Of a stretch of DNA of 32,000 nucleotides, positions 4,042 to 31,488 are shown in pieces. The DNA is from Flavobacteriaceae bacterium. GTDB lineage: Bacteria > Bacteroidota > Bacteroidia > Flavobacteriales > Flavobacteriaceae. Numbering within the stretch: position 1 is the stretch's first letter; every line of letters starts with the position of its first letter. The notes under the pieces are model-generated. The model was not told the DNA's origin, searched no databases, and was given only the letters and a program-made list of their open reading frames with translations. Position numbers and translations under genes: made by a program. The stretch is taken from contig OZ245049.1 of NCBI GenBank assembly GCA_965224465.1, positions 4,500,001 to 4,532,000 on the forward strand, read 5' to 3'.

Positions 4042-6087
4042 ATGTTAGACGAAAAAAACAATGATGCGTCAGCTGTAAAAGTTGAAAAAACAAGTGCAAC
4101 GACTAATCAAGAGATAAAGACAGAAACAGCAGCTGAAGTTGTGGAGTCTGTTGAAAGTGTAAAAGAAGTGGAAACTGAACTTACCAAAGTAGTTGAAACG
4201 ATTGATGATGCTGAGAAAGAAGTAGTTGAAGTTAAGGAGGATGCTGAGCATGTAATTGCCGAGGTTGATGCTGAGGAGAAAGTGATAGTAGAACATGATA
4301 CTGCAATTGATGAAATGGATAAAAAAGTAGCCGAATCTTCTGAAACTATTGTTGAAACAGAACAAATTGAACTGCTCGATTATAAAAGTATGGAACTGGA
4401 ACAATTGGTTTCTGAACTAACCGTGTTAGTGAAAGAAAAACCAGTATTGTTAATTAAAAATAGTGTAAACGAAATTAAAAGTGCGTTTAATAAAAAGTTC
4501 GGAGTATTATTAGCCGCTAAAAAAGACTTGTTTTTAGAGGAAGGTGGAAACGAAATTGATTTTCAATATTCCAACCCTTTAAAAACATCTTATAATGCAC
4601 TGTTGTTTGATTATAAAGTTAAAAGAGATACTCATTTTGCAGGTGTGGAGAAAGAACTGAATGCAAATTTACTTTCTAGAAACAATGTAATTGAGGAGTT
4701 GAAAAACTTGATAGAACATGCGGACGGTAATACAATGTACAAAAACTTTAGAAACTTACAAGATACATGGCGTGCTATTGGACCTGTTCCTAAAGCGACT
4801 TATAATGATACTTGGAAAACCTACCATCATCATGTAGAGCGTTTTTATGATTTATTACATTTAAACAATGATTTACGGGATCTAGATTTTAAACATAATC
4901 TAGAAGAAAAAATAAAATTGGTAACCAAAGCAGAAGAATTGGCGGAACACCCAGATATTAATTTTGCTTTTAAAGAGTTACAAGTTATTCATAAATTGTG
5001 GAAAGAGGAAGTAGGGCCTGTTGGAAGAGAACATCGCGAGGAAGTTTGGAATCGATTTAGTGCCGCAACCAAAAAAGTCCATGACAAAAGACACGAACAT
5101 TTTAAAGAGTTGCGTTCGGAATACGAAGCGAATGTAGATAAGAAAATAGCTGTTATAGAAGAGATCAATGCCTATGATACCTCCAATAATAAATCGCGTT
5201 CTGATTGGCAAAAAAGTATAAAGGAAATTGAGGTGTTACGTGATAAGTTTTTTAAATGTGGAGCTGTTCCTCGTGCTAAAAACGAAGAGGTTTGGCAGTT
5301 GTTTAAAACGGCAACACACAAGTTTAATAAGTCTAAGAATCTTTTTTACAAAGATGTAAAAGATGAGCAACTTACAAACTTAAAGAGAAAACAAGCACTG
5401 GTGACTCAAGCAAACGCTTTAAAAGAAAACGACGATTGGGAAAACACTACCAATATGATGAAGAGAATTCAGTCAGATTGGAAAAAAGTAGGACATGTGC
5501 CACGTAAGTATTCGGATAAGTTATGGAAAGAATTTAAAGATGCCTGTAATCATTATTTTGATAAATTACATCAAGTGCAAGATGCGGATAGTAAAGAAGA
5601 ATTAGCGTATTATGATGCTAAGAAAACCTTACTAGATACCATTAAAAATAATTTAGAAGAAAAAGTTGAGATTACCCTAGATACGATTGATGGATATATT
5701 TCTGAGTGGAGAGGAATAGGAAAAGTTCCTTTTGATAAAAAATATATTGAAGGTAAATTTAATAAATTGATAACAACTGTTGCTGAATCTATTAACCTAG
5801 ATAAAGAAGCTATTGAAATGTTGAAATTTAAAAATGTAATTTCTAACTATTTAGAACAAAAAAATTACAGAAAGTTAGATGCTGAACAATTGTTTGTTAG
5901 AAAGAGAATTGATGAATGTATGAAAGAAGTACAACAGTTAGAAAATAACCTAGGATTTATTTCAAATGTAAAAGATGATAATCCACTCTTAATAAATGTT
6001 CTTAAAAATATTGATCAACACAAAGACAATGTTAAAATTTGGAAAAATAAATTGGCGTATTTAAGAACGTTGAGCTATAGTAATTAA
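4042..6087 (+). CDS. DUF349 domain-containing protein with acidic N-terminal region
   Basis: Repeated ~75-aa units with the W..(F/Y)...(K/R) pattern (TWKTYHHHVERFY, EVWNRFSAATKKVHDKRHEHF, EVWQLFKTATHKF, KLWKEFKDACNHYF). The N-terminus is E/V-rich and low complexity. Confidence 0.7.
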   Translation: MLDEKNNDASAVKVEKTSATTNQEIKTETAAEVVESVESVKEVETELTKVVETIDDAEKEVVEVKEDAEHVIAEVDAEEKVIVEHDTAIDEMDKKVAESSETIVETEQIELLDYKSMELEQLVSELTVLVKEKPVLLIKNSVNEIKSAFNKKFGVLLAAKKDLFLEEGGNEIDFQYSNPLKTSYNALLFDYKVKRDTHFAGVEKELNANLLSRNNVIEELKNLIEHADGNTMYKNFRNLQDTWRAIGPVPKATYNDTWKTYHHHVERFYDLLHLNNDLRDLDFKHNLEEKIKLVTKAEELAEHPDINFAFKELQVIHKLWKEEVGPVGREHREEVWNRFSAATKKVHDKRHEHFKELRSEYEANVDKKIAVIEEINAYDTSNNKSRSDWQKSIKEIEVLRDKFFKCGAVPRAKNEEVWQLFKTATHKFNKSKNLFYKDVKDEQLTNLKRKQALVTQANALKENDDWENTTNMMKRIQSDWKKVGHVPRKYSDKLWKEFKDACNHYFDKLHQVQDADSKEELAYYDAKKTLLDTIKNNLEEKVEITLDTIDGYISEWRGIGKVPFDKKYIEGKFNKLITTVAESINLDKEAIEMLKFKNVISNYLEQKNYRKLDAEQLFVRKRIDECMKEVQQLENNLGFISNVKDDNPLLINVLKNIDQHKDNVKIWKNKLAYLRTLSYSN

Positions 6088-6236
6088 ATTTTCAAGTGAC
6101 GGTTTAAAAATGGAATTATTTTTTGTTTTAGCTAAGTAAAAATTCTAAGGATAGGCGATCGTTCTATTTTTTAACAACGCTAGAACGTGAAATAAACTGT
6201 TTACATCTATTATTTTGGACTTTAATTACTGTTATC
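6086..6236 (+). repeat. intergenic stem-forming repeat, copy 1 (long form, most diverged)
   Basis: TTTTCAAGTGACGGTTTAAAAATGGAATTATTTTTTGTTTTAGCTA...AACAACGCTAGAACGTGAAATAAAC...TTTTGGAC, homologous to six other copies in the window. Starts at the DUF349 stop codon. Confidence 0.8.
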
Positions 6237-6253
6237 CTTAAATTCAATAATTT

Positions 6254-6294
6254 AGACATAAAAAAACCTGCAATTTGCAGGTTTTTTTATGTCT
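6254..6294. terminator. bidirectional rho-independent terminator between convergent genes
   Basis: Perfect palindrome AGACATAAAAAAACCTGCAA/TTGCAGGTTTTTTTATGTCT, with a GC core stem CCTGCA..TGCAGG flanked by A and T runs. Confidence 0.8.
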
Positions 6295-6305
6295 AAACTT
6301 ATAGT

Positions 6306-6926
6306 TTATTTTTGTACACTTATATAGGTTGCAATGTTAATTTTAACCTCACTCCACGTTTTTGTAATACCGTCAGGTCCTGTGTGTAGGTCTTTACAAA
6401 CTGCATTTAAAGCTGTAATAGCAGCTTGAGCTTGCCAGTTATCTAAATTCATGGTAGCTTCCATCGTCGCCATCTGTCCGTCTAGAAAATAAGTGATAGG
6501 GAGTTCGTGAGTAATTCCATTAAGGGTGAGCTCTACTTTTCCAGAGGTTTCGGTCTCCATTATCAGTGTCCCTTTAATCTCAGCAGTTTCCGCCATGGCA
6601 CCAAAAAATGAAGTTTTTAATTTAGCATCTCTTTCTTCATTATTAGAAAACAAAGAAGAAATTGGAATTGAAAATTCTAAGTTATTCAATGCATCTTTTA
6701 AATTTGCTGCGGGCTTTGCTTTTGTGAATTTTACAACTCTAAACTCTCCTTTTACGGGTAGTTTTTCTGTTGTTTTGTAAGCTGTCCATTTGACAGAAGT
6801 TGTTTTTTCGTTTACAACATACATTACAGTGTCTTTTGCAGGAGCATCTTTCTTTTTGTTCTCTTTACAAGAAGTGAATGTAATAGTTGTTAGGATTAAG
6901 AAACAGAGGGTGTAGTAATTTTTCAT
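6306..6926 (-). CDS. YceI-like lipoprotein
   Basis: Lipoprotein signal (LTTITFTSC); VKWTAYKT..VKGEF and SSLFSNNEERDAKLKTSFFG resemble YceI-family motifs. Confidence 0.55.
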   Translation of the reverse strand: MKNYYTLCFLILTTITFTSCKENKKKDAPAKDTVMYVVNEKTTSVKWTAYKTTEKLPVKGEFRVVKFTKAKPAANLKDALNNLEFSIPISSLFSNNEERDAKLKTSFFGAMAETAEIKGTLIMETETSGKVELTLNGITHELPITYFLDGQMATMEATMNLDNWQAQAAITALNAVCKDLHTGPDGITKTWSEVKINIATYISVQK

Positions 6927-6992
6927 GGTATTTGTTTTTATTTTGTATGTATTATAAAACTTAACGTTCTAAATTCGGATATATTTTTTAAA

Positions 6993-7934: not shown

Positions 7935-7935
7935 A

Positions 7936-14397: not shown

Positions 14398-16053
14398 ATG
14401 ACTGAATTTATAAGGAAGAGGGCGTCAAATATTAAAAACGATGTATTGTCGGGTATTACAGTCTCTTTGGCTTTGGTGCCAGAAGCTGTTGCATTTGCCT
14501 TTGTGGCAGGGCTAGATCCGTTGGTTGGTTTGTATGCGGCCTTTATGGTTGGGTTAATTACGTCTGTTTTTGGAGGTAGACCTGGAATGATTTCAGGGGC
14601 TACTGGAGCATTGGCAGTAGTAATGGTTTCTTTAGTAAAAGAAGGGAATGCAATGGGCTTGCCCGCCGATAATTTAGGCTTGTATTATTTATTTGCTACG
14701 GTAATGTTAATGGGACTAATTCAGGTGTTTGCAGGACTTTTGAAGCTAGGTAAATTTGTCCGTTTAATTCCACATCCTGTAATGATGGGGTTTGTAAATG
14801 GTTTGGCGATAGTGATTTTTATTTCTCAGTTAGGAATGTTTCCTGATGCTGTTTCTGATGGTATTTCTTTTAAGGAAAATAATCATGCTTGGTGGATGGA
14901 ATTGCTTAGCAATACCAAATTTTGGTTGATGTCAGGACTGGTTGTTCTTACCATGTTGATGATGTGGGGCTTGCCAAAAATTAAATATACAAAGAAAGTG
15001 CCAGAAGCCTTATTGGCCATTTTGGTCGTTAGTTTTTTAGCCATATATTTCGGTTTAGATGTGGCTACCGTAGGATCATTTATTAAAGATGGAGGAGGAG
15101 AAGGACTTAAAGGAGGCTTGCCAATGCTACATTTGGAAACCTTTGAGAAAATTCCATTTAGTTGGGAGTCTATAAAATTTATATTCCCTTATGCCTTAAT
15201 TTTAGCGGCTATCGGTTTGATTGAATCCTTAATGACCTTAAATTTAATTGATGATTTAACAGATACTCGTGGAAATAGCAATAGAGAGTGTATCGCGCAA
15301 GGTGGTGCAAATATTGTAACAGGTTTGTTCGGAGGAATGGGTGGATGTGCCATGATCGGTCAGTCTATTATCAATATAAAAGGTGGTGGGCGTACAAGGT
15401 TGTCTGGAATAGTTGCAGCTGTTTTATTACTCTTGTTTATTTTGTTTGGATCTTCATATATTGAACAAATTCCTATTGCAGCTCTTGTTGGAGTGATGTT
15501 TATGGTGGTTATAGGAACCTTTGCTTGGAGTAGTTTTAGAATTATTAATAAAATACCGAAGGCAGATTTATTTGTGATTGTTTTAGTATCATCTTTAACA
15601 GTAATATTTGATTTGGCTGTTGCAGTAGTTGCAGGGGTAATTGTGAGTGCACTGGTCTTTTCTTGGGAAAATGCAACACGTATTAGAGCTAGAAAAAGAA
15701 TTAAAGAAGATGGAACAAAAATATATGAAATTTGGGGTCCCTTGTTTTTTGGATCCATTACTGCATTTGTTGAAAAATTTGACATTAAAAACGACCCAGA
15801 TAAAATCGAAATTGATTTTGTTGAGTCTCGTGTAAGTGATCATTCTGCAATTGAAGCAATTTTTAATATCGTAGAGAAATACGAAAAAGTAGGAAAAAAA
15901 GTACATTTAAAGCATTTAAGTGAAGAGTGTAAAATATTATTATTAAAAGGAAGTCCCAAATTTGCAGAAGTAATTGTAGATGATATAGACGATCCTCGCT
16001 ATCACCTAGCTGCAAACCCAGAAGCTTTTTCAAAAGGATTGTATGATTCCTAG
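14398..16053 (+). CDS. SulP family inorganic anion (sulfate/bicarbonate) transporter with C-terminal STAS domain
   Basis: N-terminal DVLSGITVSLALVPEAVAFAFVAGL, many TM segments, and a soluble C-terminal ~120-aa STAS-like domain. Confidence 0.9.
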   Translation: MTEFIRKRASNIKNDVLSGITVSLALVPEAVAFAFVAGLDPLVGLYAAFMVGLITSVFGGRPGMISGATGALAVVMVSLVKEGNAMGLPADNLGLYYLFATVMLMGLIQVFAGLLKLGKFVRLIPHPVMMGFVNGLAIVIFISQLGMFPDAVSDGISFKENNHAWWMELLSNTKFWLMSGLVVLTMLMMWGLPKIKYTKKVPEALLAILVVSFLAIYFGLDVATVGSFIKDGGGEGLKGGLPMLHLETFEKIPFSWESIKFIFPYALILAAIGLIESLMTLNLIDDLTDTRGNSNRECIAQGGANIVTGLFGGMGGCAMIGQSIINIKGGGRTRLSGIVAAVLLLLFILFGSSYIEQIPIAALVGVMFMVVIGTFAWSSFRIINKIPKADLFVIVLVSSLTVIFDLAVAVVAGVIVSALVFSWENATRIRARKRIKEDGTKIYEIWGPLFFGSITAFVEKFDIKNDPDKIEIDFVESRVSDHSAIEAIFNIVEKYEKVGKKVHLKHLSEECKILLLKGSPKFAEVIVDDIDDPRYHLAANPEAFSKGLYDS

Positions 16054-16090
16054 TGATGGGAATTCCTTTTGAACCTATACTTTTTGGAAG

Positions 16091-16136
16091 AACGCTAAAT
16101 ATTCATTTAATTTTTGAATATTTAGCGTTTTTTTTT
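16091..16136 (+). terminator. rho-independent terminator of the SulP gene
   Basis: 15-bp perfect stem AACGCTAAATATTCA / TGAATATTTAGCGTT followed by a T run. Confidence 0.8.
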
Positions 16137-16297
16137 GTACCTAAAGTTTGTATCGATATTTGAAAAATAAAAAGACCGATGTGATGGAATACCTCAATAG
16201 CGTAGCCATTATCATCGGTGTTGTTTTTGGCACCCTAATTGGTTTTAGGTTGATGGGGAGTTCTTGAGAATCCAAATGCTATTGCGATGGTTGATTT

Positions 16298-16349
16298 GAC
16301 TTTTTTTAATAGTATAGCCGATGTTACTTTTAACGGTACTAAGCAATAA
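16298..16349 (+). pseudogene. orphan 3' end of an LRR-lipoprotein gene (third, lost copy)
   Basis: ...GATGTTACTTTTAACGGTACTAAGCAATAA matches the last codons (DVTFNGTKQ*) of the genes ending at 20906 and 27028. There is no ORF upstream. Confidence 0.75.
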
Positions 16350-16358
16350 CTACATGTA

Positions 16359-16397
16359 ATGGATAGTTGATACTTATTTTTAGTGTCGACGATCCAT
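16359..16397 (+). terminator. conserved long hairpin that follows every LRR-lipoprotein 3' end (copy 1 of 3)
   Basis: ATGGAT AGTTGATACT..AGTGTCGAC G ATCCAT followed by TTTT. Homologous to 20915-20953 and 27038-27076. Confidence 0.6.
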
Positions 16398-16407
16398 TTT
16401 TAATTGT

Positions 16408-16453
16408 ATTCTTTTTATAAATAACAATTAAAATTGTTATTTATAAAAAGAAT
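16408..16453. repeat. perfect 22-bp inverted repeat (46-nt AT-rich palindrome)
   Basis: ATTCTTTTTATAAATAACAATT-AA-AATTGTTATTTATAAAAAGAAT. Confidence 0.85.
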
Positions 16454-16552
16454 ATAGCGTTGAAAATAAGCATAGGAAATGGGTGGAAAACAAGGGGGTT
16501 TTTTGTGACTTGTTAAATAAATGAGGCTGAATTCAAGTCACAAACGCAACTT

Positions 16553-17181: not shown

Positions 17182-17315
17182 ATGAAAAGCATAAAAGCAC
17201 TTTTGTTACTATTGTTATTCTATAGTAATTCCACGGTTTTTTAGGGTCAGTAAAATATGATTTTCAACCGAATCGATTGTGATATTGTTTTTAACCGATA
17301 CCATATATAAACGAG
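17182..17315 (+). pseudogene. TonB-dependent receptor start fused by deletion to the middle of an HmuY-like gene
   Basis: MKSIKALLLLLLFYSNSTVF* matches codons 1-20 of the receptor at 21917, with TAT changed to TAG. From 17265 the sequence continues as homolog of 24482-24530, the HmuY-like gene. Confidence 0.85.
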
Positions 17316-17476
17316 TACTAAATACATTTCCAAGTGACTGTTTAGAAATGGAATTATTTTTTGTTTTAGCTAGGCGAAAAATGGATGTATAACCTTAGCT
17401 ATGGTTTTGTTTTTTAACAACGCTAGTACGTAAAATAAATTATTTATATCGGTTATTTTGGATTGTAATTGGGATA
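17316..17476 (+). repeat. intergenic stem-forming repeat, copy 2 (long form) inserted inside the HmuY-like pseudogene
   Basis: TACTAAATACATTTCCAAGTGACTGTTTAGAAATGGAATTATTTTTTGTTTTAGCTAGG...AACAACGCTAGTACGTAAAATAAATTATTTATATCGGTTATTTTGGATTGTAATTGGGAT. Absent from the equivalent site (24530/24531) of the intact paralog. Confidence 0.85.
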
Positions 17477-17699
17477 ATAGTTGACTAAGCGGTATGGAAA
17501 AGCAGGCATTTATGATAAGGGACTTGTTGCCTATGTAGCTATTGTATCGGTAATACAAAAAAACGACAATACTGAATTTATAACAGATTCTGTAGATAAA
17601 ATTTTGATGCGTGATAAGAAGTAGATCAAATTATATATCCCTATAAATAAGGTTCCGTGGTTCAATCCTTATTCGGATCCTTAGTAAATAAATCAATTG
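17477..17699 (+). pseudogene. HmuY-like pseudogene, middle segment
   Basis: Nucleotide homology to 24531-24757, with stops and frameshifts. Confidence 0.8.
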
Positions 17700-18938: not shown

Positions 18939-18974
18939 GAGATCGAATATTTTTTTGGGTCGAAATAATGCATA

Positions 18975-19051
18975 ATACTAAATACATTTCCAAGTGACGG
19001 TTTAAAAACAAACTATTTATATAGGTCATTTCGGATTGTGTGGTATAATTC
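18975..19051 (+). repeat. intergenic stem-forming repeat, copy 3 (short form)
   Basis: ATACTAAATACATTTCCAAGTGACGGTTTAAAAACAAACTATTTATATAGGTCATTTCGGATTGTGTGGTATAATTC. Confidence 0.85.
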
Positions 19052-19118
19052 TCCACAATGCCATTTTTGGCATAAATAAATTGCATTACAATTAGTAATA
19101 ATTAAATTTTAAATAAGT

Positions 19119-20906
19119 ATGAAAACAATTAAATTAGTTGCAGTGTTATTTATAATGCTGAGTGTATTCGCTTCTTGCGATAAAGATGATACTGATTTTT
19201 CAGAAGGAAAGGCTCTGGAAAATACCGAGTTAAAAACAGTACTTAAAGCTATGGGATATGAGTTTGATGCTGATAATAAGCTGATTGTAAATGACAAGGC
19301 GATACAGACAAAAAGTCTTGACTTATCGGGGAAAAAATTAACAAGCTTTACAGGTTTAGAAATTTTTCCTCATTTAACAGAAGTAAACTTAGCTAATAAT
19401 ATGTTTGAAGACCCAGACTTTAGCAAGTTACCAGTAACAATTATAAAGCTGAATTTATCAAACAATCATCTCCAAGAGTTAGATTTTATAAAACTGCCTT
19501 TAGCAGTTAATGAGTTAGATTTACAAGGCAATAAACTTTACGAGTTTAAAACGCTAAAGCCTGAGCGTAAGTTTGCAAAATTATACTTACCAGAAACGGC
19601 TAAGTACAATACGGACGAAGTATTGGCATATTACACAGCCAATAAAATGTTAGATATACAAATAAGAACAGGTGGTAAATTAATAAAATATACGAGCCTG
19701 CGTAGCGTACCGGATCCTCTTTTACGTGCTGGTCTGAAACAAAAATTCCCTTCGGTATTTACAGGTGATAAAATTGATCTTTCAAAAGAAATGGCTGTTT
19801 TAGAAGGAGAAAAAGGATTGCTGTTGTTGAATGGAGATCTTCCTTACAATAAGGATGTTAAGTCATTAGAAGGGATTCAGTACATTGCCAATTTTAAAAA
19901 CTTTTCTGGAAATGTAAAGGTACATATGAAAGCTTCGTTAGGTACAAGTATTGGCTATTTTAAAGTGTCAAAAGAAGTTTCAGTGTTGCAGTTTGTTAAT
20001 GTTAACTTTACGGAAGCCATTGATTGGAAAAGTGCAAAGAAATTGATTTCTTTTGGACTAGGAAATGCAACAGGCTTGCAAGAAGTTGACCTCTCCTTTT
20101 CAGAAGCCTTTGGTAAAATAGCCAGTCCTTTTGGAGTAGAGATTGCTTTGTTAGATTGTCCAGATTTAGAAAAAGTTGTTTTTCCAAGTCGTGATAAACA
20201 AAATTTTGCTGGATTTATGTTTCAAAACCTTCCTAATTTGAAAGAACTTGACCTATCAAAAATAGGATCTTTAGAGTCTGGTTTACACAATTCATTATTG
20301 GGGCTTCCTTCTTGTTGGATTAAATATCCTACGGCGTTAAATTCAACAGGCGATGGTGAGAAAATTTTACTATACATAGACAAGGGGGTTGGTGAAAAGT
20401 CTGAAACAAAATCTTTTACGGAAAAATCCAAGAATATATTAAGTTCCGAGATCTATAAAAAATCAGTAAATTCAAGTCAAAAACCTGCTGTTGGTAATGC
20501 TACATTCACCGGAGATTATTTGGGAGTTTCAAAGCCAATCATAAATGATAAAAAGTACAAGGATGTGGCCAGCACTTTTAAATTGTCTCAAAGCCAAACA
20601 GGTACTAATAAAATGAATATTTATCTGCCTCCTTTTAAAACTGATAAGATGCCAGGTAAATTAAAAATTGACATAAAAAATACGGAGTTTACAACCGCTT
20701 ATAATGGCAATATTTCCTTTGTAGGATCCCAGCCAAAGTGTGTTACATTCAAATTAACATCTTGGCCATTCATCACTTATAGTGCTAAAGGTGATTATAA
20801 AGGAACTATAATAAATAAGAAGTTTTACTTTTTTATTCATGCCGAAAAGAAAACGAGTTTTTTAGATGTTATAGCTGAAGTGACTTTTAATGGTACTAAG
20901 CAATAA
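19119..20906 (+). CDS. surface lipoprotein with two leucine-rich-repeat modules and a C-terminal beta-rich domain (paralog A)
   Basis: Lipobox LSVFASC. LRR units LDLSGKKLTSFTGLEIFPHLTEVNLANNMF, LNLSNNHLQELDF, LDLQGNKLYEF. Second LRR block NLPNLKELDLSKIGSLE. Paralog of 25244-27028. Confidence 0.8.
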   Translation: MKTIKLVAVLFIMLSVFASCDKDDTDFSEGKALENTELKTVLKAMGYEFDADNKLIVNDKAIQTKSLDLSGKKLTSFTGLEIFPHLTEVNLANNMFEDPDFSKLPVTIIKLNLSNNHLQELDFIKLPLAVNELDLQGNKLYEFKTLKPERKFAKLYLPETAKYNTDEVLAYYTANKMLDIQIRTGGKLIKYTSLRSVPDPLLRAGLKQKFPSVFTGDKIDLSKEMAVLEGEKGLLLLNGDLPYNKDVKSLEGIQYIANFKNFSGNVKVHMKASLGTSIGYFKVSKEVSVLQFVNVNFTEAIDWKSAKKLISFGLGNATGLQEVDLSFSEAFGKIASPFGVEIALLDCPDLEKVVFPSRDKQNFAGFMFQNLPNLKELDLSKIGSLESGLHNSLLGLPSCWIKYPTALNSTGDGEKILLYIDKGVGEKSETKSFTEKSKNILSSEIYKKSVNSSQKPAVGNATFTGDYLGVSKPIINDKKYKDVASTFKLSQSQTGTNKMNIYLPPFKTDKMPGKLKIDIKNTEFTTAYNGNISFVGSQPKCVTFKLTSWPFITYSAKGDYKGTIINKKFYFFIHAEKKTSFLDVIAEVTFNGTKQ

Positions 20907-20914
20907 CTAATGGA

Positions 20915-20953
20915 ATGGATAGTTGATTCTTATTTTTAGTGTCATCTATCCAT
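20915..20953 (+). terminator. conserved long hairpin after the LRR-lipoprotein gene (copy 2 of 3)
   Basis: ATGGATAG TTGATTCT..AGTGTCA T CTATCCAT followed by TTTT. Confidence 0.6.
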
Positions 20954-21054
20954 TTTTAATTGTGTTTTTTATTTTCACAATCATGTTTTGTACAGCCATT
21001 TTGTTAATTATTGCAGGAATAATTATGAATGTACGAACAGTAAAAAAGTAAGTA

Positions 21055-21217
21055 ATTCAAATACATTTCCAAGTAACGGTTTAGGATTTGAATTGTTTTT
21101 TGTTTTAGCTAGTCGAATAATCTAAGGATTGGCATTAGCTATCGTTCTTTTTTTATACAACGCTAGAATGTGAAATAAACTATTTATATCGGTTATTTTG
21201 GATTGTAATTGCTATAA
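21055..21217 (+). repeat. intergenic stem-forming repeat, copy 4 (long form)
   Basis: ATTCAAATACATTTCCAAGTAACGGTTTAGGATTTGAATTGTTTTTTGTTTTAGCTAGTCG...ACAACGCTAGAATGTGAAATAAACTATTTATATCGGTTATTTTGGATTGTAATTGCTATAA. Confidence 0.85.
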
Positions 21218-21880
21218 AGTATGTTTTGTTCTTGCTGGATTTTATCTTTTAGTGAGGCTTGGTATTTGTGGTTCTATGTTGGCTTAGTACAAACCGTTTT
21301 TTGTTCTTATACTTTTTCTTGTTTTTCTTTTATGCTGTTTTAAAAGTGTGGTTTTACCTTGTAGTTTCTAAAGCTGCTCACTAGGTATTTTAACCAATAT
21401 GATTTCCGTACACTTGTCTATTATGAACATAGGTTAATAATAGACGAGTGTACGATTATTGATCCTTATTTCCATGTTAAAATGTTAAACCACAATCCCG
21501 TGGTTGTATTTTTCTGCTTCTGTTAATCACTTATATTTATGCCTTTAAATAAAAACAAAGCATACATTTTCTTCTATTTATTACAGAGTAGTTCCTAAGT
21601 AAAATTAGATGTAATTCCTTGTTGTCTAAGGGGTATTTCCTTTTATCAGGCGTTGATTATAAAAAGTTTGATAGTGCAATTTATGCTGTTGTAAATCAAC
21701 CCTTTTCGCGTTGTTTTGTGCCTTTTTAGTATAAAACAGCATCGTTTTTATAAAAAACAATTATTTTTAAAATAATCGTACACGGCTGATTATCAGTATC
21801 TAAAAATTATAATTAGCGTTGTTATTTAGGTTTGTCTTGAAATTAAAATTATTTTAGTGTACGTCATCTAATTTAAATTA

Positions 21881-21888
21881 TATCTTTG
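21881..21888 (+). promoter_or_regulatory. candidate -7 box (TATCTTTG) for the TonB-dependent receptor operon
   Basis: TAnnTTTG match ending 28 nt upstream of the ATG at 21917. The decayed unit keeps a -7 box (TACTTTTG) at the equivalent position (17154-17161). Confidence 0.4.
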
Positions 21889-21916
21889 CAGTTTTTATTA
21901 AGACTAATTATAAATT

Positions 21917-24238
21917 ATGAAGAGTATAAAAGCGCTTTTGTTACTATTGGCATTCTATAGTAATTCCACGGTTTTTTATGGTCAGCAAAAAATGATTTTA
22001 AAGGACGCTGAAACTTTAGAAGTTTTAGAAACAGCAGAAGTTATATTTTCTTTGGCTAAAGACATGAAAAAGTCTAAAGGATGTGTATCCAATAATTTAG
22101 GTGAAATTGCCATTCCGTATGCCAAAGCGTGTTATTACAAAGCTTTTTTTATAGGTTACGAAACTAAAAAAGGTAAAATACGTACGGCTAAAAATACCTT
22201 CACAATATTCCTTAATCCTATCGGGCATGAATTAGATCAAGTGGTTATAACAGGTAGTAGAGCACCTAGGTCTATAAAATTATCTCCCGTAGTAACACAG
22301 GTGATACCTGCTTCTAGACTTACAGAATCTGGTTTTAAAGATATTCAAGGTGCATTAATGCAAGAGATGCCTGGCCTTAATTTTCAAAAAGTTGGTTTTG
22401 GAACAGATATTAATATTTCTGGTTTAGATGCTAGACATATATTATTTCTTATTGATGGAGAAAGGCTTACAGGAGAAATGGCGGGTAATTTAGACTACCA
22501 AAGGTTTAACTTACACGCAATAGATAGAATAGAAATTGTAAAAGGTGCATCTTCTACTTTATATGGTTCTAGAGCAGCAGGAGCAGTTATTAATATGATA
22601 ACAAAAAAAACAAAAAAACCTTTTGTTGCCAAAATTGGAGCTCGCTACGGGCAAATGAATGAAGTGAATTACAAAAAGCCTCGTAAATCAAACTTTCTTT
22701 ACATGTATCAAAAAAATGTAGATAAGCCTAATTTACAAGCATGGGCTTCTGTGGGGAGTAATATTGGGGACTTTACTTCACAAACAGATGTACTGTATAG
22801 TAGTTCAGATGCTTTTTATTTATTTCAATCAGGCTACGATATTAAAAAGTTTCCTGCGGATCCTAAAATTGGATTGAAGGAAGAAGTTACTATAACCTCT
22901 TGGTTGCCAAGACCTCCTCTAGGTGTCGAAGGATCGGAACATGTAAATATTTCTCAGAAATTATACTATGATCCGTCTACCAATTTATCTGCCCAATTAT
23001 ACGGTTCTTTATTTTTTCTAAATACGTATGATTTAGTACAAGATTTGCAATTTTCACAAGCAAAAGATATTACGGGAGGTGTAAATATAGCTTACAATTT
23101 TAATGATTTTGCAAAGGTGACATTAAGTATGCATTCTGATTTTTACAAACGGTTTAAAAGGCAAGAGCGCATAGATACTAGAGATATAGTGTATGACTCT
23201 CAGATTTATCAGCCTCGTATTATTATTTCTTCTGAATATTTTAAGAACAATAGTATATTATTTGGAATAGAATATTTTAAAGATGATTTAACTAGTGACC
23301 GTTTTAAAAACAACAAATTAGTAAAACGAAGTAAGAAAGATTTGGATGTTTTTTTACAAAACGAATACAATATTACTGATAAAATTATGATAGTTGGAGG
23401 TTTTCGTTCCAGTTATAATGAAAATTATGGAACCAACATAGCTCCAAAATTAGCCGTAAAATATTCTCCATCAAATCCTGTGTCTATACGTTTTAATTAT
23501 GCTGCAGGGTATAGGTCTCCCTCCATAAAAGAACTGTATTTTAATTGGGATCATTTAGGGATGTTTCAAATTGTAGGAGATGAAAATTTACAGCCAGAAA
23601 AAAATAATTATTTTTCTATTTCTAGTGAGTACAGGACCCGAAAGCTGTTTTTTTCCGGAAATGTGTATGCTAATTATTTCAGAAATAAAATAGAAGGAGT
23701 ATGGAGAATTTATAATTTTCAATACAATTTTGAATACAGAAACCTATCAAAAAACGCCATATTAGGGACTGAAATAGTAGGTCGTGTAAAATTGAGCGAT
23801 CCTTTATCTATAAGCCTTTCATATTCTTACGTGCATGTTGATAAAGTAGAAGGGATACAAATAAATACATCTTCACCTCATACAGGAAATATACGCTTTG
23901 AATATCAATACAAAAAAGAAGATTATAAGCTAAAAGCAAATTTAAGCCTTGCCATTACAGGGAAAAAAGAATTTAGTGTACAAGATAAAATAGTATTAAA
24001 AGGAAAAACATACGATGCTTTTTTTGAAGTAGAAACACCTACGTATGTTATGTGTAATTTATCCATCAATCAAAAATTTAAAAACAGAACAGAACTTACA
24101 ACAGGAATAGATAATCTGTTTAACTATAAGCCTAAAACATTAGGTGCTGGAGTTACAATGTTTAACGTCCCTGCAACCTCTGGACTCAGGTTTTTTGTCC
24201 AAATGAACTTTACTTTAGATAAATTTTTTAATAATTAA
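21917..24238 (+). CDS. TonB-dependent outer-membrane receptor with N-terminal carboxypeptidase-regulatory-like domain
   Basis: Signal peptide, then a small beta-sandwich-like N-domain. Plug region DQVVITGSR...ISGLD...FLIDGERL...IDRIEIVKGASSTLYGSRAAGAVINMITKK, followed by a long beta-barrel with alternating Y/F strands. Confidence 0.9.
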   Translation: MKSIKALLLLLAFYSNSTVFYGQQKMILKDAETLEVLETAEVIFSLAKDMKKSKGCVSNNLGEIAIPYAKACYYKAFFIGYETKKGKIRTAKNTFTIFLNPIGHELDQVVITGSRAPRSIKLSPVVTQVIPASRLTESGFKDIQGALMQEMPGLNFQKVGFGTDINISGLDARHILFLIDGERLTGEMAGNLDYQRFNLHAIDRIEIVKGASSTLYGSRAAGAVINMITKKTKKPFVAKIGARYGQMNEVNYKKPRKSNFLYMYQKNVDKPNLQAWASVGSNIGDFTSQTDVLYSSSDAFYLFQSGYDIKKFPADPKIGLKEEVTITSWLPRPPLGVEGSEHVNISQKLYYDPSTNLSAQLYGSLFFLNTYDLVQDLQFSQAKDITGGVNIAYNFNDFAKVTLSMHSDFYKRFKRQERIDTRDIVYDSQIYQPRIIISSEYFKNNSILFGIEYFKDDLTSDRFKNNKLVKRSKKDLDVFLQNEYNITDKIMIVGGFRSSYNENYGTNIAPKLAVKYSPSNPVSIRFNYAAGYRSPSIKELYFNWDHLGMFQIVGDENLQPEKNNYFSISSEYRTRKLFFSGNVYANYFRNKIEGVWRIYNFQYNFEYRNLSKNAILGTEIVGRVKLSDPLSISLSYSYVHVDKVEGIQINTSSPHTGNIRFEYQYKKEDYKLKANLSLAITGKKEFSVQDKIVLKGKTYDAFFEVETPTYVMCNLSINQKFKNRTELTTGIDNLFNYKPKTLGAGVTMFNVPATSGLRFFVQMNFTLDKFFNN

Positions 24239-24251
24239 GCAAAGGGTAATT

Positions 24252-24959
24252 ATGAAAATAAAAATAGCACTTATAATATGTGTAGTACTAAGTATATTAA
24301 CCGCTTGTGTAAAATACGATGCCGAGCCATTTAGTGGAAAAACACTTCCTAGAAGAACGGAATATAGTAACGATTGGTTATACTATAATTTAACGAAGGA
24401 TACATATTTAAACCCGCATAAATCAGAATCGGGAGATTCTATAAAGGGAACCAAAAGTATTATAATAGAAGGAAAGCAATTCAACCGAAACGATTGGGAT
24501 ATTGCCTTTAACCGATACAATATTAGAACCAATAGCGGACTAAGCGGTACGGAAAAAGGAGGCGTTTATGATATGGGACTTGTTGCCTATGAAGATATTG
24601 TATCGCTAACACAAATACCCGACAATGCTGAATTTATAAAGGATTCTGTAGTTAAAATTACGATGAGTGAGAAGATGTGGAACAAACTATACTTCCCTAT
24701 AAATAAAGAGCCGTGGTTCGATCCTAATTCGGGACCTAAGCAAATGAAATCTACAGCTAATAAGTTGCTAAGTAGCGCCTTGATGTTTTCTGGGCCGCCA
24801 CCATCATATACGCCTTCTAATCATGTGTATATAATTCGTACTGCTGATGGAATGAATTATTTTAAATTACAAATTATTAGTTGGTATGATCAATATAAAA
24901 ATATTGGACAGCGAGGTGGGAAAATTAGCTTTAAATGTGATCAATTATTAAAGAAATAG
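24252..24959 (+). CDS. HmuY-like lipoprotein
   Basis: Lipobox LSILTAC. DWDIAFNRYNIRTNSG and a C-terminal YFKLQIISWYD pattern typical of HmuY-family proteins. Lies immediately downstream of the receptor. Confidence 0.75.
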   Translation: MKIKIALIICVVLSILTACVKYDAEPFSGKTLPRRTEYSNDWLYYNLTKDTYLNPHKSESGDSIKGTKSIIIEGKQFNRNDWDIAFNRYNIRTNSGLSGTEKGGVYDMGLVAYEDIVSLTQIPDNAEFIKDSVVKITMSEKMWNKLYFPINKEPWFDPNSGPKQMKSTANKLLSSALMFSGPPPSYTPSNHVYIIRTADGMNYFKLQIISWYDQYKNIGQRGGKISFKCDQLLKK

Positions 24960-24994
24960 AGATCGAATATTTTTTGGACTCAAAATAATGCATC

Positions 24995-25160
24995 ATACCA
25001 AATGCATTTCCAAGTGATGGTTTAGAAATGGGATTATTTTTTGTTTTAGCTAGACAAGAAATGGATGGATAGCCTTAGTTATCGTTCTATTTTATAACAA
25101 TGCCAGCACGTAAAATAAATTATTTATATCGGTCCTTTTGGATTGTTATTGGTGTAATTC
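24995..25160 (+). repeat. intergenic stem-forming repeat, copy 5 (long form)
   Basis: ATACCAAATGCATTTCCAAGTGATGGTTTAGAAATGGGATTATTTTTTGTTTTAGCTAGAC...AACAATGCCAGCACGTAAAATAAATTATTTATATCGGTCCTTTTGGATTGTTATTGGTGTAATTC. Confidence 0.85.
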
Positions 25161-25243
25161 TCCACGATGCCATTTTAAGATGTAAAGAAATTTGCATAAC
25201 AATTAGTGAAAAATAAATAAAAACAATTAAATTTTAAATAGGT

Positions 25244-27028
25244 ATGAAAACAATTAAATTAGTTGCAGTATTATTTATAATGCTGAGTATATTCGCTTCT
25301 TGCGATAAAGATGATGATTTTTCAGAAGGGAAAGTTCTGAAAAATACCGAGTTAAAAACAGTACTTAAAGCTATGGGATATGAGTTTGATGCTGATAATA
25401 AGTTGATTGTAAATGATAAGGCGGCAAAGACAAAAAGTCTTGATTTATCAGGGAAAAAATTAACAAACTTTACGGGTTTAGATATTTTTCCGCTTTTAAC
25501 AGAAGTAAACTTAGCTAATAATATGTTTGAAGACCCAGACTTTAGCAAGTTGCCAGTCACAATTATAAAACTAAATTTATCAAACAATCACCTTCAAGAA
25601 TTTGATTTCACAAAACTGCCTTTAGCTGTTAGGGAGTTAGATTTACAAGGCAATAAACTTTACGAGTATAAAACACTAAAGACTGAGCGAAAGTTCACCA
25701 AATTATACTTGCCAGAAACTGCTAAGTACAATATGGATGAAGTATTGGCATATTACACCGCCAATAAAAAGTTAGATATACAAATAAGAATGGGGAGTAA
25801 ATTAATAAAATATACAAGCCTACGTAGCGTACCCGATCCTCTTTTACGTGCTGGTCTGAAACAAAAATTCCCTTCGGTATTTACAGGTGATAAAATTGAT
25901 CTTTCTAAAGAAATGGCGGTTTTAGAAGGAGGAAATGGACTACTATTAATTAATGAGTATCTTACTTACGATAAGGATGTTAAATCATTAGAAGGGATAC
26001 AGTATATTACCAATTATAAAAACTTTTCTGGAAATATAGTGGTAAATATGAAAGCTTCTCTAGGTACAAGTATTGGCTATTTTAAAGTTTCAAAAGAAGT
26101 TTCAGTATTGCAATTTATTAATGTTAATTTTACGCAAGCCATTGATTTGAAAAATGCAAAGAAATTGATTTCTTTTGGACTGGGAAATGTAAAAGGCTTG
26201 GAAGAAGTTGACCTCTCCTTTTCAGAATCTTTTGGTACAATTGCCAGTCCTTTTGGAGTAGAGATTGCTCTGTTAGATTGCCCAGATCTAGAAAAAGTTG
26301 TTTTTCCAAGTCGTGATAAACAAAATTTTACGGGATTTATGTTTCGAAACCTTCCTAAATTGAAAGAACTTAACCTATCTAAAATTCAATCTTTAGTGTC
26401 AGGTTTTGATAATTTATTAATAGGTCTTCCTTCTTGTAAAATTATATATCCTACGGTGTTAAATGCAACAGATGATGGCGAGAAAATTTTACTATCCATA
26501 GATAAGGAGGTTGGTGAAAAGCCAGAAACCAAAGCTTTTATAGCAAAATTTAAGGATATATTAAGTTCTGAGATCTATGAAAAAACAGCAAATTCAAGTC
26601 AAAAATATGCCGCTAATAACGCTGCGTTTATAGGAGATTATTTGGGGGTTTTAGAACCGATAATGAATGGGAAAACATACAGTAATATTGACCGTACTTT
26701 TACATTGTCTCAAGACCAATCTGGCAGTCATAAAATGAATATTTACCTGCCTCCTTTTAAGGTTGGGACGATGCCTGGTAAATTAAAGGTTGATATTAAA
26801 AACACAAAGTTTACAACCGCTTCTAATGGAAATATTTCATTTGTAGGTTCCCAGCCCAAGTGTGTTTCGCTCAAGTTAAGTTCTTGGCCATACACAAACT
26901 ATAGGTTTAAAGGTGATTATAATGGAACTATAATAAATAACAAGTTTCACTTTTTTATTCATGCCAAAAAGAAAATTATGTTTTGGGATATTACATCCGA
27001 TGTGACTTTTAATGGTACTAAGCAATAA
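25244..27028 (+). CDS. surface lipoprotein with two leucine-rich-repeat modules and a C-terminal beta-rich domain (paralog B)
   Basis: Same architecture as 19119-20906. The N-terminal ~370 aa are nearly identical by eye and the C-terminal ~200 aa are clearly more diverged. Confidence 0.8.
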   Translation: MKTIKLVAVLFIMLSIFASCDKDDDFSEGKVLKNTELKTVLKAMGYEFDADNKLIVNDKAAKTKSLDLSGKKLTNFTGLDIFPLLTEVNLANNMFEDPDFSKLPVTIIKLNLSNNHLQEFDFTKLPLAVRELDLQGNKLYEYKTLKTERKFTKLYLPETAKYNMDEVLAYYTANKKLDIQIRMGSKLIKYTSLRSVPDPLLRAGLKQKFPSVFTGDKIDLSKEMAVLEGGNGLLLINEYLTYDKDVKSLEGIQYITNYKNFSGNIVVNMKASLGTSIGYFKVSKEVSVLQFINVNFTQAIDLKNAKKLISFGLGNVKGLEEVDLSFSESFGTIASPFGVEIALLDCPDLEKVVFPSRDKQNFTGFMFRNLPKLKELNLSKIQSLVSGFDNLLIGLPSCKIIYPTVLNATDDGEKILLSIDKEVGEKPETKAFIAKFKDILSSEIYEKTANSSQKYAANNAAFIGDYLGVLEPIMNGKTYSNIDRTFTLSQDQSGSHKMNIYLPPFKVGTMPGKLKVDIKNTKFTTASNGNISFVGSQPKCVSLKLSSWPYTNYRFKGDYNGTIINNKFHFFIHAKKKIMFWDITSDVTFNGTKQ

Positions 27029-27037
27029 CTAAATATA

Positions 27038-27076
27038 ATGGATAGTTGATACTTATTTTCAGTGTCAATTATCCAT
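27038..27076 (+). terminator. conserved long hairpin after the LRR-lipoprotein gene (copy 3 of 3)
   Basis: ATGGATA GTTGATACT TATTTTC AGTGTCAAT TATCCAT followed by TTTT. Confidence 0.6.
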
Positions 27077-27094
27077 TTTTAATAACTAAAATTT

Positions 27095-27682
27095 ATGAGA
27101 ACAAAAATAATTATACTATTAAGTTTATTCGCATTATTTTCTTGTGAGAAAAAAGAAATGGAAGAAACTACACCTGATAATACAGCGCAGTTCAATAAAG
27201 TATTTAACAATACGATTGTGCTTACTACAATGGCTTTTATAAGTGGTGATCCAAGAACTGTTGAGCCTGGCATGCCTATGAAATTTCATTTTAAGTACAA
27301 TAAGAATAATCCAGATAAGCTTTTGTTAGAGTTTAAAAAGTTTCACTATGGGAAAATGCCTTTGTCCGTAAATTTCAGGGGGCTTGTAGATTTACAAAAG
27401 GATACTAAAAATGGAGTAGAAAGAGTACGTCTGTATTGCAACAATGCTGCAACAGGTATTTGGAACCCAGCAGAACCAGAAGCAGCATTAGGACCAGGTG
27501 CTACAGGTAATGGTAAAGTTGATGGTTATTTTTATCCTGAAACTAATGAAATTGAAGTTTTTATCAATTTTAATATGATGAATGTTACGGCATATTCTGT
27601 AAAACAAAAAATTGACCTTAGTCGTCTTGCTAGGTTTGACAAGGAGATGAAAGACTATATAAAAATTCATGATGCTCAGTAG
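27095..27682 (+). CDS. small lipoprotein, possibly a calycin/lipocalin-like beta-barrel
   Basis: Lipobox LFALFSC. 195 aa, beta-rich. Shares an F(K/H)..(D/G)KMP motif with the C-terminal domain of the LRR lipoproteins. The fold assignment is a guess. Confidence 0.6.
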   Translation: MRTKIIILLSLFALFSCEKKEMEETTPDNTAQFNKVFNNTIVLTTMAFISGDPRTVEPGMPMKFHFKYNKNNPDKLLLEFKKFHYGKMPLSVNFRGLVDLQKDTKNGVERVRLYCNNAATGIWNPAEPEAALGPGATGNGKVDGYFYPETNEIEVFINFNMMNVTAYSVKQKIDLSRLARFDKEMKDYIKIHDAQ

Positions 27683-27793
27683 TCAAGCCAGAATTAGATC
27701 AAATAAATGTATTAAATAGGGGGATTCGTATACATATAGGTAGCAAAACAGTTGTTTTTTTAGGGCGATATAGCGCTGATGTAGCGATATCTA

Positions 27794-27873
27794 ATACCAA
27801 ATACATTTCCAAGTGACGGTTTAGAAATAGAATAAACTATTTATATAGGTCATTTTGGATTGTGTGGTATAAT
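27794..27873 (+). repeat. intergenic stem-forming repeat, copy 6 (short form)
   Basis: ATACCAAATACATTTCCAAGTGACGGTTTAGAAATAGAATAAACTATTTATATAGGTCATTTTGGATTGTGTGGTATAAT. Confidence 0.85.
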
Positions 27874-28202
27874 AGGTTTTTGAAAGACATACTTAGATCT
27901 GGACAGTAAATGTAGGTCTGTTGTTTTTAGCTGGTAGCACCTGTTTTGTAACTAATCAGTATGCCTCTTTAAATAAAAAAAAGATACATCACTGACTAGA
28001 AGCATGTTAAGAATACGTTTATTGAGTATCAAAAATAGATTTAAAACTATAACACAAATAAAAAGGTGCTGATAAATAATGTTTTAGGTTTTTTGTGATA
28101 AAAAAACGAAAGGATTTTTTTAATTTACTGAAACATATCATTAAACTAAACACCCTAACTATATTAGCTATTTTTTATGATCTAAGTATATTTGGAACGG
28201 TA

Positions 28203-29782: not shown

Positions 29783-29801
29783 TCAATTCTAAAAACAAAT
29801 T

Positions 29802-30389
29802 ATGAATTTTATAAATTTTCTTAAGAGTAAACAGTTTTTAATACAATTAGGTCTCGGGATCGTTGTATTGATGGTATTTGTGTTTTTACTTTTTAAATGG
29901 TTGAATATTTCTACCAATCACAACCAAAAAATTGAAGTTCCTGACTTGAGTAAAATGGTATTAAGTGAAGTAGAAGATACCTTAGACGAATTGGATTTGG
30001 CATATAAAATCATCGATTCTACAAGTTTCAACCCTAATTATCCTAAAAAATCAGTAATTGAACAAAGCCCTGAAGCAGGTGATTTTGTAAAAGAAAAAAG
30101 AAAAATATATTTGACTTTAAATCCTTCTAATTATAGAAATGTCACCATTTCTAAATTTTATGGGAAAACCAAACGAAATATCTCTCCGATACTTATTGCT
30201 CAAGGATTTCGAATCTCTAAGAAATATATATATGTTTCTGACATTGCTAAGGATGTTGTAAGAGGAATAAAATTTAAAGGGAAAGACCTTAAAAAAGGAG
30301 ATAAAATACCTAAAAATTCTTTATTGACATTTGTTTTAGGTGATGGAAAAGGAAGTGGACGTTATAACTATACTCAACAAAATAACTAA
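29802..30389 (+). CDS. membrane-anchored PASTA domain protein
   Basis: N-terminal TM helix, then two ~65-aa units (VPDLSKMVLSEVEDTLDELDL...IEQSPEAG...V), the PASTA-like pattern. Confidence 0.65.
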   Translation: MNFINFLKSKQFLIQLGLGIVVLMVFVFLLFKWLNISTNHNQKIEVPDLSKMVLSEVEDTLDELDLAYKIIDSTSFNPNYPKKSVIEQSPEAGDFVKEKRKIYLTLNPSNYRNVTISKFYGKTKRNISPILIAQGFRISKKYIYVSDIAKDVVRGIKFKGKDLKKGDKIPKNSLLTFVLGDGKGSGRYNYTQQNN

Positions 30390-31405
30390 TGAATCAATCA
30401 GAAGACAAAAACGATTTATACGAGCATTTTAAATATGTAGCCAAAGAGGGGCAAGAGCCTTTACGTGTAGATAAATTCTTAATGAATTTTATTGAAAATG
30501 CAACAAGAAATAAAATACAAATAGCCGCCAAAGCAGGAAATGTTTTGGTAAACGATGTTTCCGTTAAATCTAATTATAAGGTGAAAGCGCATGATGTGGT
30601 TAGGTTGGTTTTAGAGCATCCGCCACACGAACAATTGTTGGTGGCAGAAGATATTCCTTTGGATATTGTTTATGAAGACGACCAAGTATTGGTTGTCAAT
30701 AAAGTAGCAGGAATGGTGGTGCATCCAGGTCATGGTAATTATAGTGGTACATTGGTGAATGCCTTAATACACCATTGCGAAAATGTTCCGATGAATAGTA
30801 ATGATCGTCCTGGTTTAGTACATCGTATAGATAAAGATACCAGTGGATTACTCGTAATCGCAAAAACGGAGCTGGCTATGGAGAAGTTGTCGAAACAGTT
30901 TTTTGATAAATCTACCAAACGTATCTATCATGCTTTGGTGTGGGGAAATGTAAAAGAAGATTCTGGAACGATAGAAGGAAATATTGGGCGTAGCTTAAAA
31001 AACAGGTTGCAAATGACTGTTTTTCCAGAGGGTGATTTTGGTAGACATGCGGTGACACATTATAAAGTGTTGGATCGTTTTAGTTACGTTACTTTAGTTG
31101 AATGTCAGTTAGAAACAGGACGTACACATCAAATTCGCGCTCATTTTAAGTATATTGGACATACATTGTTTAATGATGAACGTTATGGAGGCGAACGCAT
31201 ATTAAAAGGAACTACGTTTACCAAATACAAACAATTTGTAGACAACTGTTTTAATATCCTTCCAAGACAAGCCTTACACGCAAAAACTTTAGGTTTTGTA
31301 CATCCAACAACTGGAGAGTTTATGGAGTTTAATTCAGAAATCCCCGCAGATATGAAGGAATGTTTGGACAAGTGGATGAATTATACAGAAAATCAAAGGA
31401 CTTAA
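30389..31405 (+). CDS. rluD: RluA-family 23S rRNA pseudouridine synthase (RluD-like, with S4 domain)
   Basis: S4-like N-terminus (LRVDKFL...), catalytic motif GLVHRIDKDTSGLLVIAKT, and GRTHQIRAH. Confidence 0.85.
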   Translation: MNQSEDKNDLYEHFKYVAKEGQEPLRVDKFLMNFIENATRNKIQIAAKAGNVLVNDVSVKSNYKVKAHDVVRLVLEHPPHEQLLVAEDIPLDIVYEDDQVLVVNKVAGMVVHPGHGNYSGTLVNALIHHCENVPMNSNDRPGLVHRIDKDTSGLLVIAKTELAMEKLSKQFFDKSTKRIYHALVWGNVKEDSGTIEGNIGRSLKNRLQMTVFPEGDFGRHAVTHYKVLDRFSYVTLVECQLETGRTHQIRAHFKYIGHTLFNDERYGGERILKGTTFTKYKQFVDNCFNILPRQALHAKTLGFVHPTTGEFMEFNSEIPADMKECLDKWMNYTENQRT

Positions 31406-31407
31406 TA

Positions 31408-31488
31408 ATACCAATTCACTTTCCAAGTGACGGTTTAGAAATGGAATTATTTTATATCGGTCATTTTGGGTTGTAATTGGTGTAATTC
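31408..31488 (+). repeat. intergenic stem-forming repeat, copy 7 (short form, looks like the empty-site version)
   Basis: ATACCAATTCACTTTCCAAGTGACGGTTTAGAAATGGAATTATTTTATATCGGTCATTTTGGGTTGTAATTGGTGTAATTC. Starts 3 nt after the rluD stop. Confidence 0.85.

Follow-up and report, generated by a model that had tools for sequence, protein, structure and literature searches.

The 32,000-nucleotide stretch of contig OZ245049.1 analysed here (hereafter the window), which belongs to a 5.24-Mb genome of a Flavobacteriaceae bacterium, contains seven copies of a short repeat which is very probably a non-autonomous foldback MITE (miniature inverted-repeat transposable element), with a target duplication of the Tourist-like, IS5/PIF-Harbinger type. 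Terminal repeats, target duplications, empty sites, dispersal over non-orthologous positions, folding and the lack of coding capacity were all directly observed. The element is known from one marine Flavobacteriaceae lineage, comprising this genome, the North Pond assemblies NORP129, NORP150 and NORP167 and one metagenome contig, and it is an undescribed, lineage-restricted member of an ordinary class of MITEs. A first-pass annotation of the window had described the repeat as an unnamed family, and this description holds: Rfam 15 gave no match over the window at gathering thresholds (the best permissive match was Flavo-1, at 13.9 bits versus a gathering score of 42, E=4.5), and the arm sequence was not found in the literature searched.

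The same annotation had counted seven copies in a single orientation, four long and three short. All of them were recovered by string searches, both exact and with mismatches allowed, as well as by repeat detection, by alignment and with a profile hidden Markov model, and their limits were refined. The four long copies measure 154-159 bp and the three short ones 70-75 bp. The profile detected no further window copy on either strand at E<1, and for each arm no match occurred in dinucleotide shuffles. The gene contexts that had been assigned to the copies, past the stop codons of DUF349, HmuY, leucine-rich repeat (LRR) protein, DUF4903 and RluD genes, were correct. The copies are given below; element coordinates exclude the flanking target triplets.

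6078-6231 (with flanks 6075..6234), + strand: long copy, the most divergent one; flanking 3-mers CTA / TTA, with one mismatch; its 5' terminal repeat includes the TAA (6085-6087) that ends the DUF349 gene, and a bidirectional terminator (6251-6297) lies downstream
17316-17474 (with flanks 17313..17477), + strand: long copy; flanks GAG / TAA; inside a decayed HmuY paralog
18976-19045 (with flanks 18973..19048), + strand: short copy with the hairpin apex deleted; target duplication TAA / TAA
21056-21214 (with flanks 21053..21217), + strand: long copy; target duplication TAA / TAA; 149 nt past the stop of the first LRR lipoprotein gene
24996-25154 (with flanks 24993..25157), + strand: long copy; flanks TCA / TAA; between the intact HmuY gene (stop 24959) and the second LRR gene (start 25244)
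27795-27869 (with flanks 27792..27872), + strand: short copy; target duplication TAA / TAA; 112 nt past the DUF4903 gene
31409-31482 (with flanks 31406..31485), + strand: short copy; target duplication TAA / TAA; between the TAA stop of rluD (31403-31405) and a conserved intrinsic terminator (31511-31536)

At least seven further copies are present at non-orthologous sites in North Pond Flavobacteriaceae assemblies: at least six among the matches listed for NORP129, NORP150 and NORP167, where a degenerate 21-mer was used for the scan, and one on a metagenome contig. They are designated by locus numbers in what follows. Their neighbours are unrelated (rplT, ligA, a methyltransferase, a glycosyltransferase and others), and arm identity between genomes is 80-94%, as high as within the window. 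Concerning other collections, a stricter 22-mer produced only one chance match in the metagenome scan (L052), the scan of viral contigs gave no match, and neither did a blastn search of plasmids with the consensus. A solo arm-like stretch in L009 (7901-7941) was too weak to be retained (E=0.17). A protein database search with the concatenated translation of three element frames found only two open reading frames called on copies; the family is thus rare in public data. One of these is P0121, a UPF0158-like protein of 130 amino acids encoded on the North Pond metagenome contig (L056, 367-759, + strand), whose last 34 residues come from the antisense strand of a MITE copy at about 650-815 on the - strand. 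The other, P0122 (47 amino acids), lies on the window's own 5.24-Mb chromosome and is an open reading frame placed entirely on another copy, which carries an internal deletion.

One sign of transposition is found immediately outside the element. We scored target duplications on the 3-mers flanking TACC...GGTA in 13 insertions, the paralogous duplicate at 24996 being counted apart. Direct TAA/TAA flanks occur in six insertions (31409, 27795, 18976, 21056, L009 and L036) and direct TTA/TTA flanks in two (L017 and L044). The two flanks are one base apart in copy 6078, L026 and L056, as also in the paralogous duplicate at 24996, and they do not match in copy 17316 (GAG/TAA) and in the degenerate L033 (TTG/CGT). 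The probability of finding at least eight identical 3-mers among 13 insertions by chance is ~8e-11. These flanks are a duplication and not an extension of the inverted repeat, because an inverted repeat would yield TAA/TTA pairs and none was seen.

Empty sites lead to the same conclusion. In NORP167 the rluD stop codon is directly followed by the intrinsic terminator AAAAATCCTCTTTAT(T/G)GAGGATTTTTTTT, without the element, while in the window a 74-bp element and one extra TAA stand between the stop and the same terminator. Three relatives, namely NORP167, a Lutibacter metagenome-assembled genome (MAG) and a third MAG (L053, L055 and L061), have no element after rluD. A second filled/empty pair is provided by the HmuY paralogs: the decayed one reads AAAC-GAG-element-TAA-TAGTTGAC, where the intact one reads GAAC-CAA-TAGCGGAC, so that the CAA at 24528-24530 falls exactly where copy 17316 and one extra 3-mer sit, defining an exact 3-nt site. 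A comparison of copy 21056 with the paralogous region after 16404 was also attempted as an empty-site test and was dropped, the sequences being too diverged. By the definitions of MITEs in PMC3184786 and PMC11602168, the repeat shows a small non-coding size, terminal repeats, direct target duplication, filled and empty sites and dispersed copies. The first-pass annotation had preferred a 3' untranslated region (3'-UTR) or RNA-level element over a MITE; that preference is not supported, and the copies bear the marks of transposition, namely the TAA and TTA duplications, the empty rluD site and the insertion in the HmuY pseudogene.

It could be argued that nothing has moved, and that the copies are by-products of the segmental duplication of a heme-uptake cassette. 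Five of the seven window copies are indeed located in a 12-kb island (16053-28200) holding two and a half tandem paralogous cassettes of TonB-dependent receptor, HmuY, LRR lipoprotein and DUF4903. Copies 18976 and 24996 occupy paralogous sites of one segmental duplication, with flanks that align on both sides; therefore six insertion events have to be counted in the window, not seven, and part of the copy number is due to duplication of the cassette and not to transposition. However, the flanks of the remaining copies are unrelated (inside the pseudogene, and after DUF349, rluD, DUF4903 and the LRR gene), the loci which carry copies in other genomes are likewise unrelated, and both target duplications and empty sites are present. 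The non-mobile explanation is thus refuted in no fewer than five of the six window insertion events, and as a general account of the family it is hardly credible. The relationship between copies inside the island also holds an irregularity: the 3' arm of the short copy 18976 is 1 nt away from that of the unrelated short copy 27795, although its positional paralog is the long copy 24996, and 18976 and 27795 have in common a 2-nt deletion (TTGTG--TGGTA) and other derived bases. This likeness could be due to an exchange of sequence by gene conversion, or to the same TAA having served as target more than once.

As regards its anatomy, the full element is ~160 bp long with ~30% G+C, and the copies range from 70 to 184 bp over the whole set. 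Stop codons interrupt every one of the six frames of the consensus, which is therefore non-coding. The element ends are TACCAATTACA...TGTAATTGGTA, and the consensus ends TTATACCAATTACA form a perfect inverted repeat over 14 nt (3 nt of target duplication and 11 nt of element), which continues imperfectly in the consensus to ~28 nt. This terminal inverted repeat is present in 13 of the 14 copies, L033 being degenerate. Inspection of the element by eye for a Bacteroidetes-type promoter motif (TAnnTTTG) gave no exact match. In copy 6078 the terminal repeat AGTAATTAAA...TTTAATTACT carries three changes, each of them matched on the opposite arm.

The arms had previously been described as imperfect inverted repeats closing a long stem, and RNAfold reproduced that pairing (TCCAAGTGAC with GTCATTTTGGA, ACA with TGT, ATACCA with TGGTRT). 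Long copies fold from end to end as a single interrupted hairpin with the apex GATAGC-CTTA-GCTATC, and the element is thus a foldback quasi-palindrome along its entire length and not merely a pair of terminal repeats. The short copies have lost the apical part, each at a junction of its own (one following GGTTTA, one following GAAATAGAAT and one within TATTT), and these forms are deletion derivatives of the hairpin apex; the deletions probably arose from palindrome instability or from abortive gap repair. Two NORP167 copies depart from this plan in another way, as both L033 (~4830-4855) and L036 (~2230-2255) have 23 additional nucleotides inserted in their 3' half (AAATTGTGCTCAACCTGATTTGG and GATGCTGGTGATCAACTTGATTAGG, respectively). 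The insert of L033 contains GCTCAAC, which is the core of the inverted repeat of the IS1595 element found in the window, where L036 has ATCAAC; this could be a coincidence or a footprint.

A 3-bp duplication of TWA (TAA or TTA) is the signature of the IS5 family (IS1031/IS427/ISL2 groups), of PIF/Harbinger and of Tourist-type MITEs. For PIF/Harbinger the 3-bp target duplication is documented (PMC2213677). On this basis, a DDE transposase acting in trans would make a 3-bp staggered cut at TWA, and repair would then duplicate the triplet on each side of the inserted element; judging from the duplication, the enzyme would belong to IS5-family groups or be PIF/Harbinger-like, as for Tourist MITEs. 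Copies pile up near stop codons because TAA is at the same time the preferred target and the commonest stop, and because insertion at gene ends is tolerated and near-neutral. A duplicated TAA could even preserve the stop: in L044 (NORP150) the duplicated target at 6974-6976 is the TAA stop of ligA, and in L017 (NORP129) the one at 5540-5542 is the TAA stop of a gene with a glutamine-amidotransferase domain. The duplicated triplet of copy 31409 adjoins the rluD stop. By our estimate two to four stop-codon insertions in 13 are not clearly above chance, given that AT-rich intergenic DNA is rich in TWA. The position 0-150 nt past a stop codon, emphasized in the first-pass annotation, is therefore explained without any RNA function. 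Copies lying upstream of terminators would presumably be co-transcribed, the hairpin in the transcript being a by-product.

Several observations nevertheless weigh against a MITE. No autonomous insertion sequence with matching ends was found in the window, at the compared loci or among pattern matches in other Flavobacteriaceae MAGs (the latter, tried as candidate parents, were chance matches in coding DNA), and no IS5-type transposase was found in the window or at the compared loci. The total sample is of 14 copies. The six independent window insertions share one orientation (p ~0.03, for a window chosen post hoc), which counts against the MITE because cut-and-paste transposition does not predict uniform orientation. 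Moreover, in 11 related long copies, onto which the full-length hairpin was mapped from the L017 fold, 9 pairs have changes on both sides versus 4.7 in shuffles, 9 being reached by 5 of 500 shuffles, and transitions at Watson-Crick pairs that preserve pairing as G:U outnumber those giving A:C by 24:10 (p ~0.02), compared with 9:9 in unpaired columns. For these pair counts the L017-based hairpin was used instead of the RNAalifold consensus, whose interior differs from the single-sequence folds.

The last two points belong to the argument that the element acts, or has come to act, as a functional RNA, a + strand hairpin co-transcribed in 3'-UTRs or between cistrons and serving as a stabiliser, an RNase III/E site or a source of small RNA (sRNA). 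According to this hypothesis the features of mobile DNA would tell only of its origin, as in what has been reported for ERIC and Correia elements. It had been proposed before that the stem is better on the + strand, and this is the case as RNA in 14 of 14 copies, by 2-19 kcal/mol; short-copy z-scores range from -2.5 to -4.3 on the + strand versus +0.3 to -3.5 on the - strand. With DNA parameters the asymmetry disappears, both strands folding weakly and almost equally with a difference of only ~1 kcal/mol, and any strand specificity would therefore need to act on RNA. In the alignment of long copies 90.7% of the cells are paired, and the covariation score was reached by 1 of 500 shuffles. The stem position for which G-C, G:T and A-T alternatives had been noticed is real (alignment columns 29/172: GC in 6 copies, GU in 4, AU in 1). 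Three copies (31409, 6078 and L009) lie in sense orientation between a stop codon and a terminator, and all window copies are co-oriented with + strand genes.

On the other hand, the covariation is modest. Five of the 9 covarying pairs are in the terminal repeats, where covariation is to be expected of any transposon because both ends must fit one transposase, and copy 6078 alone gives three of them; the shuffle control is also known to over-call related sequences. The ratio of 24:10 is not significantly different from 9:9, and it could also result from strand-biased mutation of a coding strand. Between the consensus arms there are 13 transversions, as well as 6 transitions in favour of the + strand and 2 in favour of the - strand, the latter difference being not significant. 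No Rfam match supports the RNA hypothesis. The element is absent from the orthologous rluD site of the three relatives and from the homologous heme-uptake cassettes (TonB-HmuY-LRR-DUF4903) of three other taxa (L057, L058 and L060).

The relation to transcription observed in the window does not hold elsewhere. Two - strand genes enclose L026, which is antisense to them, L017 stands in antisense between the stop codon of a gene and a bidirectional terminator, L044 and L056 are entered in antisense from a convergent gene, and L033 and L036 lie beyond terminators. All things considered, it is quite unlikely that the family is primarily a functional RNA. A related possibility is that the MITE was exapted, its full-length + strand hairpin being kept to stabilise or to mark for processing the 3'-UTRs or intercistronic regions of transcripts, those of the duplicated heme-uptake operons for instance, with orientation filtered by selection; we consider this unlikely too, and RNA-level exaptation is at present unsupported. 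There is a weak hint that the + strand hairpin is maintained.

Orientation also bears on another mode of movement. A tyrosine (HUH) transposase, either RAYT or of the IS200/IS605 type, could mobilise a REP/REPIN- or PATE-like element in single-stranded form, and a hairpin recognised on one strand would explain why the stem is strand-specific and why orientation is uniform within one replichore. The stem is in fact strand-asymmetric, the whole element folds as a single long hairpin as REPINs do, and the six independent window insertions all point the same way, their strand showing a positive local GC skew (+0.117). However, HUH-type single-strand transposition makes no target duplication, and the 3-bp duplications largely refute this mechanism. 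Furthermore, the element is AT-rich and ~160 bp long and not a short G+C-rich palindrome, and the folds obtained with DNA parameters, almost equal on the two strands, are weak. Nor is there a consistent relation with replication, as at the North Pond loci the element is on the negative-skew strand (L009, L017 and L044) or there is no skew; replication strand was rejected as an explanation of orientation, since the sign of the skew relative to the element differs between loci. No HUH transposase was found among the window proteins examined. We therefore regard an HUH-type origin as very improbable, and the Tourist-like MITE remains the preferred explanation.

The only transposase of the window belongs to a different family, and its element interrupts the same HmuY pseudogene as copy 17316.

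17700-18790: complete IS1595-family element, with the transposase gene on the - strand at 17703-18734

The inverted repeats of this insertion sequence are GGCTCAACT(A/T)G...ATAGCGT, and the 8 bp duplicated at its target, ATCAATTG, occupy 17692-17699 and 18791-18798. This insertion sequence was evaluated as a possible parent of the MITE and rejected, since its ends are unrelated, with a best local match to the MITE terminal repeat of 7-8 of 30, and its duplication is of 8 bp; the earlier statement that the arms do not resemble IS1595 ends is thus correct.

On the syntenic contig of NORP167, which is the closest relative (RluD 91% identical), the 12-kb island is missing, and SulP is followed by lgt, a radical-SAM gene and coaD. 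The first cassette of the island is decayed, the start of the TonB-dependent receptor gene being fused to the interior of HmuY near 17263. In the cassettes of L057, L058 and L060, HmuY and the LRR protein are separated by a gene that is calycin-like or encodes a calycin-LRR fusion, and in the window the HmuY-LRR interval is of 285 nt and holds the MITE alone. In L057, genes for IS1595, ISL3 and IS256-type transposases adjoin the cassette.

In the DUF349 gene (4042-6087) the last three codons and the TAA stop are supplied by the 5' terminal repeat of the MITE, and the native C-terminal end has therefore been replaced. The terminator downstream of this copy (6251-6297) is a perfect 23-bp palindrome standing between DUF349 with its MITE and a convergent gene (6306-6926). 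A second perfect 23-bp palindrome (16407-16454) follows the remnant of an LRR gene end. Past the rluD terminator, the region 31540-32000 departs from the relatives, where yaaA follows directly; it has no open reading frame of at least 80 amino acids and may be another insertion.

Recognition of this element accounts for a conspicuous repeat, which might be taken wrongly for an sRNA or a riboswitch-like motif, and it flags annotation artefacts such as the C-terminus of DUF349, the tail of the UPF0158-like protein and small spurious open reading frames on the copies. The element also marks recent plasticity of the genome in a marine Flavobacteriaceae lineage of which little is known, in this case within a duplicated and partly decayed heme-uptake island, and it is one more bacterial MITE, with a Tourist-like duplication of TWA and with repeated insertions on TAA stop codons.

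Among known systems, the closest are Tourist MITEs, IS5 (IS1031/IS427/ISL2) and PIF-Harbinger, which have a preference for TWA. Like the element described here, they are short, non-coding and AT-rich, have terminal inverted repeats and a 3-bp TAA/TTA duplication, and prefer the neighbourhood of genes. Our element differs because no IS5-like transposase or autonomous partner was found with it in the window or at the compared loci. Many IS5 ends typically start with GG or GA, whereas the termini here start with TACC, and the palindrome covers the whole length and not the ends alone.

Correia elements (CREE/NEMIS) of Neisseria are ~100-160 bp long, have terminal inverted repeats and exist as long and short isoforms, the difference being an internal deletion. 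Many copies lie near gene ends, they are co-transcribed and they can form long RNA hairpins; promoter, IHF-site and RNase III processing functions are documented. We know of no cognate transposase identified for them. The analogy of long and short isoforms holds for our element, but the Correia target duplication is TA (2 bp) whereas here it is TWA (3 bp), and there is no sequence similarity, so that it does not belong to that family. ERIC/IRU and other MITE-like repeats of enterobacteria are imperfect palindromes of ~127 bp in transcribed intergenic regions, and the hairpin that they form as RNA can alter the stability of the mRNA depending on orientation. This is the behaviour that the first-pass annotation had proposed, but sequence, host and target duplication are different here, and orientation is inconsistent in the North Pond copies.

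Within Bacteroidota, the genus Flavobacterium alone is reported to contain hundreds to thousands of MITE clusters (PMC11602168). The MITEs catalogued in Flavobacteriales and other Bacteroidota (PMC11602168; for P. gingivalis, PMC4596501) belong to the same class and phylum as ours. Finally, extragenic hairpin repeats of the REP type occur preferentially at 3' ends and in the intervals of convergent genes (PMC3184786). REP, BIME and REPIN sequences are likewise extragenic hairpin repeats, and REPINs fold as one long hairpin as the element does here. However, they are short, G+C-rich, tied to RAYT and devoid of target duplications, whereas the present element has 30% G+C, a length of ~160 bp and 3-bp duplications at its insertion sites.

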